This document shows, in pieces, positions 48,624-53,409 of a DNA stretch of 64,000 nucleotides. The notes under the pieces are model-generated. The model did no database searches and was not told the origin of the DNA. It saw nothing but the letters and a program-made list of their open reading frames with translations. The stretch spans positions 12,120-76,119 of the forward strand of contig CAZJJN010000006.1 of NCBI GenBank assembly GCA_964546335.1, written 5' to 3'. The number at the start of each line of letters is the position of its first letter. The stretch's first letter is position 1. The position numbers and the translations under genes were made by a program. The stretch is from an uncultured Phycisphaeraceae bacterium (GTDB lineage: Bacteria; Planctomycetota; Phycisphaerae; Phycisphaerales; Phycisphaeraceae).

Positions 48624-49238
48624 TCAATGGGCACGAGCGACCTCTGGCCGAAGTGTGTGAATATCTGGCAGATTGCGATAGTAATCGTCAAAATCGAGGC
48701 CGTAACCCACAACAAATTCATCGGGAATGTCGAAGCAGACGTAATCCACCGGGAAGGCCATGGCCTCAGGCCTTTGCTTACGCAACAACACGCATGTCTG
48801 CACACTGGCAGGCTGGCGTTCCTTGAGAAGTTCGACAGCCAGCTTAAGGGTGCCGCCGGAGTCGAGAATGTCATCGATCAGCAGCACATGATGGCCTGCG
48901 AGTGATTCGGGCAAATCGGTCAGTTGCTTCTTGACTGAGGCACCGCGCGTGGCGGTCGCGGTACCGGGATAGGAACTGACCCCCATCAGGCGAATCTGAA
49001 GATACAAAGGCAGGTGACGGATCAGGTCAGCGACGAAAATCAGGCTGCCCGTGAGAATCGGCACCAGCGTCACCTGCGGATGACGGTTGTTATGGCTAAG
49101 CTGATCGACAGTCGGCATCGGCGCATCAGGCCCGGTGAACTGGGCGTACAGATCCTGCGTCATCGTCGCTGCGATCTGCGCCACGCGCTCGGCGATGGAT
49201 TCCTTGCTGATCAGGATTCGGTCTAGGTCCTGCTTCAT
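48624..49238 (-). CDS. hpt: hypoxanthine phosphoribosyltransferase
   Basis: PRPP loop 'HVLLIDDILDSGGTL' and 'DEFVVGYGLDFDDYYRNLPDI'. Confidence 0.9.
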   Translation of the reverse strand: MKQDLDRILISKESIAERVAQIAATMTQDLYAQFTGPDAPMPTVDQLSHNNRHPQVTLVPILTGSLIFVADLIRHLPLYLQIRLMGVSSYPGTATATRGASVKKQLTDLPESLAGHHVLLIDDILDSGGTLKLAVELLKERQPASVQTCVLLRKQRPEAMAFPVDYVCFDIPDEFVVGYGLDFDDYYRNLPDIHTLRPEVARAH

Positions 49239-49249
49239 GCTGGTAGTCT

Positions 49250-51880
49250 ATGCGAAACGGCTCACTTGTTGAGCCCAAGTACCAACTTGTCATGGAAGAC
49301 AGACAAACGCCAACTTCATCCCCTTTGATAGACGCCGATCCAGTCCAGGTTGCGTCGACTACGGATTCCGCTTCATCCATCTGGTTGACGCGATATCGCT
49401 GGCTGCTGGCAGGATATTGGCTAGCGCTTGCCACGATCACACACTGGCCGAAGTTACCCGTCCCCAATCAGGAAATTGCGACGCTCCGGGCGGACGTGCT
49501 GCTGCATCTTCTGGCCTTTGGCATCCTCGCCTGGCTGATCTTTCAAAGCAGGTTATGCCCGACCGGCAGCAATCGACCGGTGCGGGGTTTAATCACACTC
49601 GTGATCGCGAGCAGTTATGCGTTGGTCGATGAATGGACTCAGCAGTTCGTGGGGCGGGTGGTCGATGTCGGGGATGTCTTGGCTAACGTGGCAGGGATCG
49701 CGGCCGTGGCTTATGTCATGGGCATGACCGGCTGGCGCGCGGAAGAAAAAGCAAAGCAACCCCTGTCCTGGCGGGCGAAACTCTTTGGCATCGTTTTGAT
49801 CTTCATGGTGCTTGCGACGGTCATCCTGTTATTGGTGTCGCGCCAGACCGTCGATGACCTTGGCTTCTGGTTCCGTACGCGAGGCATCTGGCGGGATAAG
49901 ATCGCTCATTACCTGGCTGCGGGGCTGGTGCTGATCCTCTGGCATTTTTCGCGCTGGCCGATGCGGCACCGCCCGGGCATTCGAGCTGGTTTGATCGCGT
50001 TGGTACTCCTGGCTGCCGGGCCGATGATTGAAGTTGTGCAGAGCCTTGTCGTGCCCATCCGTGGTAACAACGTGGCAGACATGGCTGCGCATACCCTCGG
50101 CGTGGTGGCAGGCATGACCATCGTCCTCTGCCTGGAGTGGGCGTTGTCGGTCAGTCGTCAACACGCCATCCTGCGCTTGCCGGTGACAACGCGGCCAATT
50201 GATGCTGACACTGCTGACCTTCCTGCTGCCGATGAAGTTTCTGATAAGCAGGGCGCGCGTCGATCGCGCGATGTTGAACCTGTCGAACGCAGCGAATCAT
50301 TCATCGGGCACGCCAAGCTGGTCAGTCTGCTGACATTGCTGTCGCGTGTCGCAGGCTTGGCGCGCGATGCCATCCTCGCGGCAGTGTTTGGTCTGAGCAG
50401 CGTCGCCGATGCTTTTTTCATCGCGTTTCTCATCCCCAACCTTTTCCGCCGACTCTTCGGCGAGGGGGCTTTGTCTGCAGCGCTCGTGCCTCATTACGCG
50501 GAACTGATCGAACGCGATCCTCCAGCCGCGAGACAACTCGCCTGGGCGATGACGGCTTTACTTATCGTCGTCACCGGCGGGTTGACGCTGCTCGGCATCG
50601 CTGTCCTGTTCGGCCTGCTATCTCTGGGTGGTTGGTCAGCGGGTACCGCACTCACGCTCAAGTTGAGCATGCTCATGCTCCCTTACATGCCATTGATCTG
50701 CATCGTCGCGATCTGGTCTGGCATGCTCAATGTGCACAAACGATTTACCCTGCCCGCACTCGTACCCGTCATTCTCAACGGCTGCATCATTGCCGTCGCT
50801 GCGACCGCGGGGCTGATCCAACGCTGGCCTGCTGAACAGACCGCCTTTGCTGTGGGCGGAGCGATCGTTATCGCGGGTTTGCTGCAACTCTTGCTGGTAG
50901 GGGGGCAGTTGTTGACCGTTGCGCCAGTGACATGCCAACTTCGTCAGGCAGCCGGGGCAGTGCGCGAGGTCATCGTCATGATGGGGCCGATGACCATCGG
51001 CCTGGCCGTGTTTCAAATCAACGCGTTGATGGACAGCCTGATCGCTTATGTCTTGTCTGACCGAGCTGCGTCGCAGCCTTTGGTGATGTTGAACTTGACG
51101 ATCCCTCAGCCTCTGGAGCCCGGGGCCGTGGCCGCGCTGCAATGGGCACAAAGGCTTTACCAGTTTCCCTTGGGTGTGTTTGGCATCGCCATTGCGACAG
51201 CCATCTTCCCGGCATTGGCGCGTTCTGCCAGCCGATTGGAATCAGGCGACACCACCTTCCGCAACACCTTGCAGCAGGGATTGCGTTTGGCTTTTTACAT
51301 CGGTCTGCCTGCGACGGTAGGCTTGATGCTGGTGCGCGAGCCAGCCGTGCGATTACTTTTCGAACGCGGCAAGTTTGAAACAGGCGACAGCATTCGCGTG
51401 GCCGGCATCTTGCTGGGATATGCATCTGCCATCTGGGCTTACACCATGATGCATGTATTGACGCGCGCGCACTATGCTGTGAAAGATGCAGCCACGCCTT
51501 GGCGGTTGTCACTGGCAGCAGTGGGAATCAACCTGATTCTGAACCTGACGTTGATCTGGCCACTAGGCGCTGCGGGCTTGGCGTGGTCGACTGCAGCGAC
51601 GGCAGCACTGCAGGTGGCACTGCTTTGGCGCAGCATGGCTGGTCGCGTCGGCCCGTTGATGACCATGCCCGTGCGTATCTCTTTATTGCGCACAGGCATC
51701 GCAGCCGGGGCCATGTTGATCGTCCTCTTACCCATCGGGATATGGGTAAATTTCCTGGCGATGGACACTACGCGGCTGCTGGTCGGGCTGATTTTGATGA
51801 TGGTGTTGGCCGGGGTAGTGTTTTTCGTGGTTAGCCGCGCGCTGAAGGCCGAGGAATTGGGAATGCTCTTGCGCAAGTAG
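49250..51880 (+). CDS. murJ: fusion protein: two VanZ-like domains + lipid II flippase MurJ
   Basis: aa 45-157 ('ADVLLHLLAFGILAWL...VDEWTQQFVGRVVDVGDVLANVAG') and aa 175-300 ('RDKIAHYLAAGL...IEVVQSLVVPIRGNNVADMAAHTLG') have VanZ patterns. From about aa 350, 'LVSLLTLLSRVAGLARDAILAAVFG..SVADAFFIAFLIPNLFRRLFGEGALSAALVP' is the MurJ N-terminus, followed by about 14 TM helices. Confidence 0.85.
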   Translation: MRNGSLVEPKYQLVMEDRQTPTSSPLIDADPVQVASTTDSASSIWLTRYRWLLAGYWLALATITHWPKLPVPNQEIATLRADVLLHLLAFGILAWLIFQSRLCPTGSNRPVRGLITLVIASSYALVDEWTQQFVGRVVDVGDVLANVAGIAAVAYVMGMTGWRAEEKAKQPLSWRAKLFGIVLIFMVLATVILLLVSRQTVDDLGFWFRTRGIWRDKIAHYLAAGLVLILWHFSRWPMRHRPGIRAGLIALVLLAAGPMIEVVQSLVVPIRGNNVADMAAHTLGVVAGMTIVLCLEWALSVSRQHAILRLPVTTRPIDADTADLPAADEVSDKQGARRSRDVEPVERSESFIGHAKLVSLLTLLSRVAGLARDAILAAVFGLSSVADAFFIAFLIPNLFRRLFGEGALSAALVPHYAELIERDPPAARQLAWAMTALLIVVTGGLTLLGIAVLFGLLSLGGWSAGTALTLKLSMLMLPYMPLICIVAIWSGMLNVHKRFTLPALVPVILNGCIIAVAATAGLIQRWPAEQTAFAVGGAIVIAGLLQLLLVGGQLLTVAPVTCQLRQAAGAVREVIVMMGPMTIGLAVFQINALMDSLIAYVLSDRAASQPLVMLNLTIPQPLEPGAVAALQWAQRLYQFPLGVFGIAIATAIFPALARSASRLESGDTTFRNTLQQGLRLAFYIGLPATVGLMLVREPAVRLLFERGKFETGDSIRVAGILLGYASAIWAYTMMHVLTRAHYAVKDAATPWRLSLAAVGINLILNLTLIWPLGAAGLAWSTAATAALQVALLWRSMAGRVGPLMTMPVRISLLRTGIAAGAMLIVLLPIGIWVNFLAMDTTRLLVGLILMMVLAGVVFFVVSRALKAEELGMLLRK

Positions 51881-52020
51881 GAGCTGGTGAAAACAAGCGA
51901 CTTACTTCACCTTGCAGTAAAGAAGGCATAATGACTTGGTATTGACTGAGTCTGGACAAGTGAACTGACTTTGCCTTTCTCAAACAACGCAAGCCTCACA
52001 TCATCCTGTCGGCGTATAGC

Positions 52021-52389
52021 CTAATGCGGCACTTCCTTCACCGCGTTGCGATTCCAGCCGGGGACGCGAGCTTCGATGATGCCCGGCTTTTCGATCACAC
52101 ATTGGCAGGCGAGTCTACTGTTGATCTGTAAGGCCGGGGCTTCTTCCACCCGGTCGAGTTCATCATCTTCCGCTTCACTTAAAAACTCATCACCCGATTC
52201 AATATAAACATGGCAGGTGGAGCAGGCACAGACCCCGCCACACGCATGCTCGATGTTGATGTCATGCGCCAATGCCACCTCCAGCAGGTTCTGCCCGATC
52301 TCGGCTGGCAGTTCCCATCGCTGCTGATGGGTGTCGGTCAAGGCGTGGGGGTCATCCAGATGGAAAATCACTTTGGTGTCGTTGGCCAT
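52021..52389 (-). CDS. fdx: 2Fe-2S ferredoxin (adrenodoxin/ISC Fdx type)
   Basis: 'CGGVCACSTCHVYI' plus a distal 'RLACQ' Cys gives the four cluster ligands. Confidence 0.9.
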   Translation of the reverse strand: MANDTKVIFHLDDPHALTDTHQQRWELPAEIGQNLLEVALAHDINIEHACGGVCACSTCHVYIESGDEFLSEAEDDELDRVEEAPALQINSRLACQCVIEKPGIIEARVPGWNRNAVKEVPH

Positions 52390-52401
52390 AACAGATTGCC
52401 T

Positions 52402-53409
52402 TTAACTTTTGCTGTTTGTCTGTGACTCGCTCGTGGCTGTCGGGTCGGGTCGGTAAATGCGGGTATCCAGCGCCCAGACTTTTTCGCTGAAGCTGCCTGA
52501 GTTTTCCGCGCCCGTATTCTCGCGCACAGCCAAGGCCATCTGCAGCTTGGCATCCAGATTATCAATCATGCCGATGGCGATGGCTTCAGGTGTGGCCGGA
52601 ATCTTGGCCGCCCCGAACTCAGGCTGGGTGTGATGTGAAATCACAATGTGTTGCAGCACGGTCAGCAACTCATCACTGAACTCCTTGCCTGATTCGCGAA
52701 GCTGATCCACCTTCTTCTGCAGCCAGAGCGCACCTTCCACGATATGGCCGACGAGTAAACCTCGGTCGGTATAGCCAAAGCCATCGCTCCAGGTCAGTTC
52801 GCTGCACTTGGCCAGGTCATGGAGAAACAGCCCGGTGACGACAAGATCGCGATTCACCTCCGGATAAATCGGGCAGATGGCATCAGCCAACCGGAGCAGT
52901 TGCAGCGTGTGTTCAAGCAGTCCACCGAGGAACGCGTGGTGCAAAGTCATCGCAGCCGGGGCCTGCTGAAACTTGTCCATCAACTCCTCATCGGTGACGT
53001 ACGCCTCGATCAGATATCGCAGCGACATATGCTTGACCGTGTTGAGCTTTTCAATCAACTCGGCATACATTTCTTCCACGTCATACTTGGTTGAAGGCAG
53101 CAAGTCGGCCAGTTGATCAGCGGTCGGCTCCGTGGCGCTGATGCGCTGGATGATGACCTGAATCTCGCCTTGGTAAGGTTGCGTCTGCCCTTCGATGCGC
53201 ACAAAGCCGTTCTGTGGCAGCTCATTGAAAAGTTGCTCGGAGATGTTCCACATGCGGCCGGGCGTGCGGCCGGACTTATCCGCGAGCAGACATTTCAGGA
53301 AAGGCTTGCCAGCCTTGGTCTGCCCAAGTTGTGCGTTCTGGATGGCGTAAAGACCTTCAATGAACTGGTTCGCTTCAAGGTCGGCAATGTTGGTTCGGCT
53401 TGGAGGCAA
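52402..53409 (-). CDS. OB-fold + HD-domain phosphohydrolase (YhaM-like 3'-5' exoribonuclease family)
   Basis: N-terminal OB ('FLKCLLADKSGRTPGRMWN') and an HD domain ('HHAFLGGLLEHTL...LFLHDLAK...GHI'). TTG start. Confidence 0.75.
   Translation of the reverse strand: MPPSRTNIADLEANQFIEGLYAIQNAQLGQTKAGKPFLKCLLADKSGRTPGRMWNISEQLFNELPQNGFVRIEGQTQPYQGEIQVIIQRISATEPTADQLADLLPSTKYDVEEMYAELIEKLNTVKHMSLRYLIEAYVTDEELMDKFQQAPAAMTLHHAFLGGLLEHTLQLLRLADAICPIYPEVNRDLVVTGLFLHDLAKCSELTWSDGFGYTDRGLLVGHIVEGALWLQKKVDQLRESGKEFSDELLTVLQHIVISHHTQPEFGAAKIPATPEAIAIGMIDNLDAKLQMALAVRENTGAENSGSFSEKVWALDTRIYRPDPTATSESQTNSKS

Follow-up and report, generated by a model that had tools for sequence, protein, structure and literature searches.

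Within a 64,000-nucleotide stretch from an uncultured Phycisphaeraceae bacterium (assembly GCA_964546335.1, contig CAZJJN010000006.1, positions 12,120 to 76,119; hereafter the window), a single gene at 49250..51880 on the forward strand joins two tandem VanZ domains to the lipid II flippase MurJ. This gene is a tandem-VanZ version of an already catalogued VanZ-flippase fusion, and on balance we lean, by a modest degree, towards a 22-helix inner-membrane protein made of two tandem VanZ domains, a flexible cytoplasmic linker and the sole MurJ of the genome, in which at least one VanZ domain would cleave peptidoglycan intermediates linked to undecaprenyl diphosphate (C55-PP). A first-pass annotation, made from the letters of the window, had proposed one gene encoding VanZ-VanZ-linker-MurJ in a lineage whose peptidoglycan was recognised only recently; the architecture is upheld by domain searches and an AlphaFold2 model, and the host belongs to the Planctomycetota (Phycisphaeraceae), as the names of its homologues also indicate.

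Domain architecture and reality of the fusion

Open reading frame (ORF) analysis of the window returns one stop-free frame of 876 codons at this locus. The uninterrupted 876-aa frame of the first-pass annotation is therefore a single open frame; its product, however, is probably shorter. Because a sister strain (95% identical, from another sample) carries a TGA at codon 5 of the 14-codon extension (TCA -> TGA) and because M15 is a nearly invariant first residue among homologues, translation probably starts at M15, at position 49292, giving a product of 862 aa. The sister-strain gene is called from the equivalent of M15, its next ATG, and a start at 49292 leaves an intergenic gap of 53 nt to the divergent hpt gene, whose ATG lies at 49238 on the reverse strand.

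The C-terminal part is a complete MurJ that begins where it had first been placed, near residue 350 (Table 1). PF03023 matches residues 376-833 (E 6e-84, 282.7 bits against a cut-off of 27.4), the murJ equivalog TIGR01695 matches residues 355-875 (326.5 bits against a cut-off of 235.55), and alignment to E. coli MurJ 6cc4 gives an E-value of 6.7e-48. In the full-length AlphaFold2 model (86 homologues, mean predicted local distance difference test score (pLDDT) 85.5, predicted template modelling score (pTM) 0.76), the pLDDT of this part is mostly above 90, and Foldseek aligns it to 7waw with a target TM-score of 0.88 and an rmsd of 3.0. According to the 6cc4 alignment, R366, R372, D387, R400 and R635 stand at the positions of E. 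coli R18, R24, D39, R52 and R270, which we take to be essential central-cavity residues; the four arginines are invariant in the 86 homologues and D387 is not. No other MurJ in the genome exceeds the family cut-off, the sole other MOP-like match reaching 25.9 bits, and the genome also encodes two SEDS proteins and three MraY/WecA-family transferases. Overall, the MurJ part looks functional and is a predicted flippase. Relative to that of E. coli MurJ, its periplasmic loop ahead of transmembrane helix (TM) 8 is lengthened by an insertion of ~20 aa (residues ~602-624, window ~51053-51121), for which a small beta-hairpin is predicted. Each of the 80 Planctomycetota MurJ examined has this TM7-TM8 insertion, with 38-53 residues separating the N591 and R635 columns, and its presence with or without VanZ linkage rules it out as a VanZ docking site.

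Both halves of the region preceding MurJ, in which a VanZ pattern had been noted at residues ~45-157 and ~175-300, fold as four-helix bundles in the model. Searched alone, domain A scores 41 bits against PF04892 (cut-off 30.1; current annotation labels this family VanZ-LLP1) and 46.5 bits against NF037970, and domain B scores 22.6 bits against PF04892 (E 1.8e-4); PF04892 and PF03023 are accordingly found together in one ORF, with domain A above the Pfam gathering score and domain B below it. When a family profile of each half, derived from 93 homologues, is compared with that of the other, the two agree at 98.8% probability (E 1.2e-16, 17% identity), and the second half is on this basis a diverged VanZ copy. 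The modelled helices span residues 40-64, 81-99, 109-134 and 140-159 in domain A and 174-196, 215-234, 242-267 and 275-307 in domain B, which has an additional 'handle' helix at 198-211. The tandem VanZ model has a pLDDT of 72.7. A Foldseek search of the Protein Data Bank (PDB) with the tandem VanZ model gave no match at E <= 0.001, and a PDB sequence search with the protein returned MurJ entries only. Elsewhere in the genome lie two more VanZ-like frames, with weak scores that do not reach the Pfam cut-off: one of 200 aa at G000:C39:15697-15915 (-), with 25.1 bits, and one of 140 aa at G000:C42:1004-1195 (+), with 21.1 bits.

Table 1. Positions of the VanZ-MurJ gene, its parts and its downstream neighbours in the window; residues are numbered along the maximal frame (AF2, AlphaFold2; CDS, coding sequence; dN/dS, ratio of nonsynonymous to synonymous substitution rates).
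Feature	Position (strand)	Description	Basis
First 14 codons of the maximal ORF	49250..49291 (+)	Probably untranslated	Sister-strain TGA at codon 5; M15 conserved
Probable CDS of the VanZ-VanZ-MurJ protein	49292..51880 (+)	862 aa + stop	No indel and no stop in sister strain
VanZ domain A	49367..49726 (+)	Residues 40-159, four-helix lipocone core	PF04892, NF037970, AF2
VanZ domain B	49769..50170 (+)	Residues 174-307, predicted diverged second copy	Profile-profile match to A, AF2
Disordered charged cytoplasmic linker	50171..50290 (+)	Residues 308-347	AF2 pLDDT, codon scan, dN/dS
MurJ lipid II flippase module	50291..51877 (+)	Residues 348-876, 14-TM MOP fold	PF03023, TIGR01695, 6cc4, 7waw
Fer2 ferredoxin	52021-52389	Convergent to the VanZ-MurJ gene	Non-syntenic in sister strain
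OB-fold/HD protein	52402-53409	Downstream in the window	

The genome is a draft in 85 contigs, and an assembly or sequencing error could in principle have merged two genes; independent assemblies served as the test of such an artefact. Relative to the sister strain, which comes from a different sample, the gene differs by 39 amino-acid and ~114 synonymous changes with zero indels and zero stops, and its nucleotide composition is even along its whole length. Because the same continuous frame is present in the sister strain and in independent fused loci, 20 in number, an assembly artefact is excluded, and we regard a merge of two genes by error as vanishingly improbable. The N-terminal extension is likewise common among the 120 best database matches, in which it measures 270-385 aa in 93 and 126-186 aa in 22, and is lacking in 6. 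Across the whole gene, comparison with the sister strain gives a dS of 0.19 and a dN/dS of 0.12; by region, dN/dS is 0.125 for VanZ-A, 0.177 for VanZ-B, 0.59 for the linker and 0.069 for MurJ, values that indicate purifying selection on both VanZ domains.

The charged linker between the VanZ domains and MurJ is borne out by composition and model alike: the stretch 303-352 holds 8 K/R and 10 D/E, and residues 308-345 have pLDDT values below 50. Such a disordered and poorly conserved segment might allow two separate products, VanZ-VanZ and MurJ, to arise through internal initiation or linker proteolysis, which would make the covalent link functionally meaningless, and two-gene versions that are evidently functional do occur in close relatives. 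Nonetheless, start codons are lacking just upstream of the MurJ part, as had first been noted for ATG and GTG, with no in-frame ATG, GTG or TTG between codons 313 and 362; the nearest candidates, TTG310 and GTG312, are not preceded by any Shine-Dalgarno-like sequence. In addition, the frame is kept through the linker, free of indels in the sister strain, and is likewise kept in the fused loci from independent assemblies. An internal start in the linker is thus unsupported, and we consider two separate products unlikely. The pTM of the full-length model hints at a defined arrangement of VanZ relative to MurJ that would be compatible with docking.

From two-gene operon to tandem fusion

The same fusion recurs in related genomes, the architecture being shared by dozens of independent Phycisphaerales assemblies; among cultured Phycisphaeraceae, Poriferisphaera corsica has a homologue of 873 aa. 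We scanned 80 named Planctomycetota loci, with 3-kb flanks, using our own profiles of VanZ-A, VanZ-B and MurJ. A double VanZ is fused to MurJ in 11 loci, and a double VanZ has murJ as its adjacent gene in a further 7; a single VanZ is fused to MurJ in 9 loci, which brings the fused loci to the 20 mentioned above. In the most frequent arrangement, seen in 31 loci, the 3-kb flank holds a single vanZ that lies upstream of murJ in the same orientation; these loci include metagenome-assembled genomes (MAGs) labelled Isosphaeraceae, Singulisphaera and Lacipirellulaceae. VanZ is absent within 3 kb of murJ in 22 loci, among them MAGs labelled Sedimentisphaerales, Scalindua, Brocadia and Pirellulales. 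Where a double VanZ and murJ are split, the genes meet in an ATGA overlap, a ATGGCTGA overlap or the arrangement TAA-CGG-ATG, and because these gene junctions are proper, the split double forms are predicted to be true two-gene operons and not errors. The VanZ-VanZ protein of one such two-gene version, from a Phycisphaeraceae MAG (L017), measures 282 aa. Within the same order, vanZ is fused or adjacent to murJ in 16 of the 17 genomes sampled and lies 2.6 kb away in one. In other orders of the class, VanZ and MurJ genes are unlinked in the pairs checked. A different VanZ-containing open frame, of ~620-680 aa, recurs in one family of the class, f8 (for example G106:C312:1759-2034 and G133:C43:18515-18802), and in the pairs checked this frame and murJ stand on separate contigs.

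Taken as a series, these gene arrangements show a predicted two-gene vanZ-murJ operon to be widespread in Planctomycetota, the fusion to have arisen through loss of the intervening stop codon, and the VanZ module to have been additionally duplicated in part of the Phycisphaeraceae. Since the single VanZ modules of relatives always match the VanZ-A profile best, VanZ-B is most simply read as an inserted, diverged copy. The whole is, on comparative grounds, a Rosetta-stone series that would run from operon to fusion to duplication, with occasional fission. Two relatives show irregular arrangements. In G005 (L014 2568-3272), a 234-aa gene whose product has a prepilin-type N-terminus (FTLVELL motif) is inserted between a single vanZ and murJ and so separates the pair. 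In G003 (L016, C1:3674000-3684000), VanZ-MurJ lies in a stop-free frame of 1704 codons at a locus with several overlapping long frames; because the DNA there carries many overlapping long open frames, a larger fusion is improbable and the frame may be a spurious extension.

The first-pass annotation had taken this architecture to be undescribed, a claim that does not survive comparison with published work and public databases. Burroughs et al. (eLife 2025, PMC12419801), who defined the lipocone superfamily, report that VanZ fuses directly to MviN/MATE flippases; their source data record VanZ-2 N-terminal to a MATE-flippase 26 times and as its upstream neighbour 104 times, and a zinc ribbon (ZnR) with a MATE-flippase 2 times N-terminally and 30 times upstream. 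Precomputed public annotation, moreover, already assigns PF04892 and PF03023 to ~80 of the 120 best homologues, although their names read only 'MurJ'. In the proposal of Burroughs et al., VanZ works on the head groups of flipped lipid II and releases undecaprenol (PMC12419801). The fusions of that survey and the protein described here share the placement of VanZ on the N-terminal side of a MOP flippase within a single polypeptide, or of vanZ immediately upstream, with a zinc ribbon sometimes in between, and the proposed target of flipped lipid II head groups; they differ in that two VanZ domains stand in tandem here, the second with a conserved His at the last ligand position. Planctomycetota are not named in the summary table of that study, which gives Terrabacteria, the FCB group and Pseudomonadota for VanZ-flippase contexts, and the tandem-VanZ-plus-MurJ form is absent from its text, the flippase entry giving only VanZ-2 and ZnR as N-terminal partners (PMC12419801). 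In the literature searched, we found no description of a tandem diverged second VanZ, of its restriction to Phycisphaerales or of the near absence of DUF218/Upr-like proteins from that order.

Zinc-ribbon elements also occur in our loci. A DZR-like cytoplasmic tail or match is present in 4 of 7 upstream vanZ frames scanned, two of which come from Isosphaeraceae- or Planctomycetaceae-labelled MAGs (observations at L051 1639-2916, L053 1421-2716 and L068 1948-4692), and in one fused Phycisphaerae protein the region that separates VanZ from MurJ gives a weak HypA-type, zinc-ribbon-like match that falls short of the cut-off (E 7e-4). These matches agree with the ZnR partner of the MATE-flippase in the lipocone source data.

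Active sites, topology and possible function

To judge the state of the VanZ active sites, residue conservation was counted over the 93 double-domain homologues. In domain A, the signature consists of D82 (conserved in 92), position 83 (Lys in 89), H86 (92), D127 (88), E128 (93), Q131 (93), R136 (93), D142 (92) and N146 (67, the rest being S, D or G). The signature of domain B comprises D216, K217 (Lys in 33), H220 (86), E261 (88), Q264 (87), R271 (80), D277 (80) and H281 (82). These positions correspond to VanZ H87, E128, R137, D143 and D147 and to YfiM K28, H31, E72 and D91, and domain A is nearly collinear with E. faecium VanZ (H87/E128/R137/D143/D147 against H86/E128/R136/D142/N146). Set against the K-x-x-H/E/R/D-x3-D constellation, domain A retains H86, E128, R136 and D142 with V83 in place of Lys and N146 in place of the last Asp, and domain B retains K217, H220, E261, R271 and D277 with H281 in place of the last Asp; the D-K-x-x-H motif is complete in domain B of both the window protein and its sister.

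The signature clusters are located at the start of helix 2, the end of helix 3, the loop between helices 3 and 4 (H3-H4) and the start of helix 4. The loops that bear them are acidic or neutral in the family charge statistics, and the H2-H3 loops and the connector between domains A and B are net positive (family mean K/R 2.7-3.7, D/E 0.1-0.7). The N-terminus of E. coli MurJ is cytoplasmic. Charge bias and helix count together show an N-in topology of 8+14 helices with both VanZ active-site clusters at the periplasmic membrane surface, the periplasmic placement following because eight helices precede a MurJ whose N-terminus is cytoplasmic. This is the same side as that on which MurJ releases flipped lipid II.

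The mechanism of VanZ, which had been called poorly understood, has since been addressed, so that this description is outdated. Ca2+-dependent lipid-linked-oligosaccharide pyrophosphatase activity has been reported for yeast Llp1, enterococcal VanZ and E. coli YfiM (bioRxiv 10.64898/2026.09.16.752124), work that this preprint, where it cites it, attributes to Li et al. 2025. H87, E128, D143 and D147 of VanZ are reported to be essential for activity and R137 is labelled an active-site residue, and alanine at K28, H31, E72 or D91 of YfiM abolishes activity (bioRxiv 10.64898/2026.09.16.752124). Voedts et al. 2026 put VanZ forward as a candidate lipid II diphosphatase in lineages without Upr-like enzymes and call the action of bacterial VanZ on lipid II in vivo still open (bioRxiv 10.64898/2026.10.14.759067). 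Our protein has in common with VanZ, Llp1 and YfiM a modelled membrane core of four helices and most residues of the K-x-x-H, E, R, D-x3-D/N constellation; unlike those proteins, which stand alone, it is tethered to a flippase, has Val at position 83 and replaces the last acidic ligand with Asn or His.

By analogy with this biochemistry, at least one of the two VanZ domains would act as a Ca2+-dependent pyrophosphatase. Its substrates may be undecaprenyl-diphosphate-linked peptidoglycan intermediates, namely surplus, aberrant or unpolymerised lipid II and possibly lipid-anchored glycan strands, and cleavage would yield undecaprenyl phosphate (C55-P) and a phosphorylated glycan, so that the scarce lipid carrier could be recycled right beside the flippase. 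The covalent linkage of the VanZ domains to MurJ bears out the suggestion that the fusion ties VanZ to lipid II handling; on the mechanism proposed here, it would fix stoichiometry and proximity and create no new activity. Surveillance, homeostasis or release are the likely roles, whereas bulk degradation of lipid II is disfavoured because it would be futile. A replacement undecaprenyl-diphosphate phosphatase was also considered as a role for VanZ and is ruled out, as the genome encodes BacA (241 bits) and two PAP2 proteins.

Several observations weigh against a hydrolytic role beside the flippase. Position 83 is Val in the window protein and its sister strain where nearly all homologues have Lys, and the K28A substitution at the equivalent position of YfiM abolishes activity (bioRxiv 10.64898/2026.09.16.752124). 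The last metal-ligand position (VanZ D147) holds Asn in domain A and His in domain B, and domain B is degenerate in ~15 of the 93 homologues. If freshly flipped lipid II were hydrolysed constitutively, a futile cycle would result, and selection of substrates or regulation must therefore be assumed. Finally, the linker, 30-80 aa long, is disordered and fast-evolving (dN/dS as given above), which argues for a loose tether between VanZ and MurJ.

Some of these same features would be expected if the VanZ domains were non-hydrolytic and instead bound lipid II or undecaprenyl phosphate or acted as regulators, gating MurJ, handing lipid II to SEDS and penicillin-binding proteins (PBPs) or anchoring the flippase. 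The K83V replacement in domain A, the N146 and H281 that stand where the canonical last ligand would be, the weak conservation of the domain B Lys and the degenerate copies of domain B all fit such a role, as does the description in the lipocone survey of many inactive VanZ-i copies that follow active ones (PMC12419801). However, H, E, Q, R and D are near-invariant in domain A and conserved in 80-88 of the 93 homologues in domain B, as expected of a working active site, both VanZ domains are under purifying selection, and Asn has been described as usual at the last position in the VanZ-1 family. We therefore hold a purely non-hydrolytic role to be a possible but distinctly less probable explanation.

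A third explanation is that VanZ-MurJ handles another undecaprenyl-linked glycan, such as an exopolysaccharide or protein-glycosylation precursor, and not lipid II. MOP flippases and VanZ families are both tied to exopolysaccharide pathways in the lipocone survey (PMC12419801), and the gene lies outside a dcw cluster, with hisD, a bPH_2 protein, hpt, a ferredoxin and an HD protein as its neighbours. Yet the protein passes the TIGR01695 equivalog cut-off, keeps the MurJ-specific cavity arginines and, in a genome with SEDS and MraY-family genes, is the one MurJ to exceed the family cut-off; the single other MOP-like match there has just the 25.9 bits given above. We consider a different glycan very unlikely, and a pyrophosphatase that acts on C55-PP-linked peptidoglycan intermediates remains the reading that we favour.

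DUF218 distribution, significance and gene neighbourhood

The Upr-like (DUF218) proteins UprA/B/C, described as periplasmic release factors for C55-PP-linked polysaccharides (bioRxiv 10.64898/2026.10.14.759067), resemble the proposed function of the VanZ pair in that they release peptidoglycan intermediates from undecaprenyl diphosphate and allow carrier recycling. They differ in fold and in the bond that is cut, as Upr proteins cleave the phosphoacetal to give C55-PP whereas VanZ-type enzymes cut the pyrophosphate, and the VanZ-MurJ protein is unrelated to them in sequence. PF02698 (DUF218/Upr-like), the domain with the Thr-His-Arg-Glu cluster, has no match anywhere in the genome and is absent from 36 of 41 Phycisphaerales relatives. 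Within the class, DUF218 is found in all 16 sampled genomes of family f10, none of which has a VanZ of this type, and overall in 18 of 26 genomes without VanZ of this type versus 25 of 95 (Fisher p 1.3e-4, kinship ignored). This anticorrelation comes mostly from one family and carries no phylogenetic correction, which adds to the points against our reading, and strict complementarity between DUF218 and VanZ-MurJ linkage was looked for and not found, as many genomes of the class are without both. The association is suggestive and serves as a lead only.

Since DUF218/Upr-like proteins are mostly missing in Phycisphaerales, a MurJ-tethered VanZ pair could fill the release role there, freeing peptidoglycan intermediates from undecaprenyl diphosphate on the periplasmic side, with a separate role for the His-bearing second VanZ; we put this forward as speculation that is rather doubtful in its full form. 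If it were true, the VanZ pair would release glycan strands or clear unpolymerised lipid II, flipping and carrier recycling would be combined in one polypeptide, and the second VanZ copy might, for example, act on another substrate or control the flippase allosterically. In that case the fusion would also be a first genetic handle on the native substrate of a bacterial VanZ.

That vanZ adjoins or is fused to the gene of the sole lipid II flippase across a whole order argues strongly, on comparative grounds, that VanZ targets the substrate or product of that flippase. A single chain that carries the flippase and a putative lipid II pyrophosphatase in a 1:2 stoichiometry would be convenient for structural and biochemical work, for which the natural split, single and double forms provide built-in controls. 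Nothing is overturned by these findings, as an association between VanZ and flippases had already been predicted computationally.

Gene order upstream of VanZ-MurJ (hisD, bPH_2 protein, hpt) is kept in the sister strain (L097 5590-8589), and synteny is lost directly after the VanZ-MurJ stop, as seen on comparing window positions 51881-53409 with the same sister-strain locus. The ferredoxin gene downstream in the window is not part of a lipocone-type VanZ/ferredoxin operon, since it is convergent, of Fer2 type and non-syntenic in the sister strain. In the sister strain, VanZ-MurJ is followed instead by an unannotated 172-aa gene and then by an NfeD/Peptidase_S49 gene.

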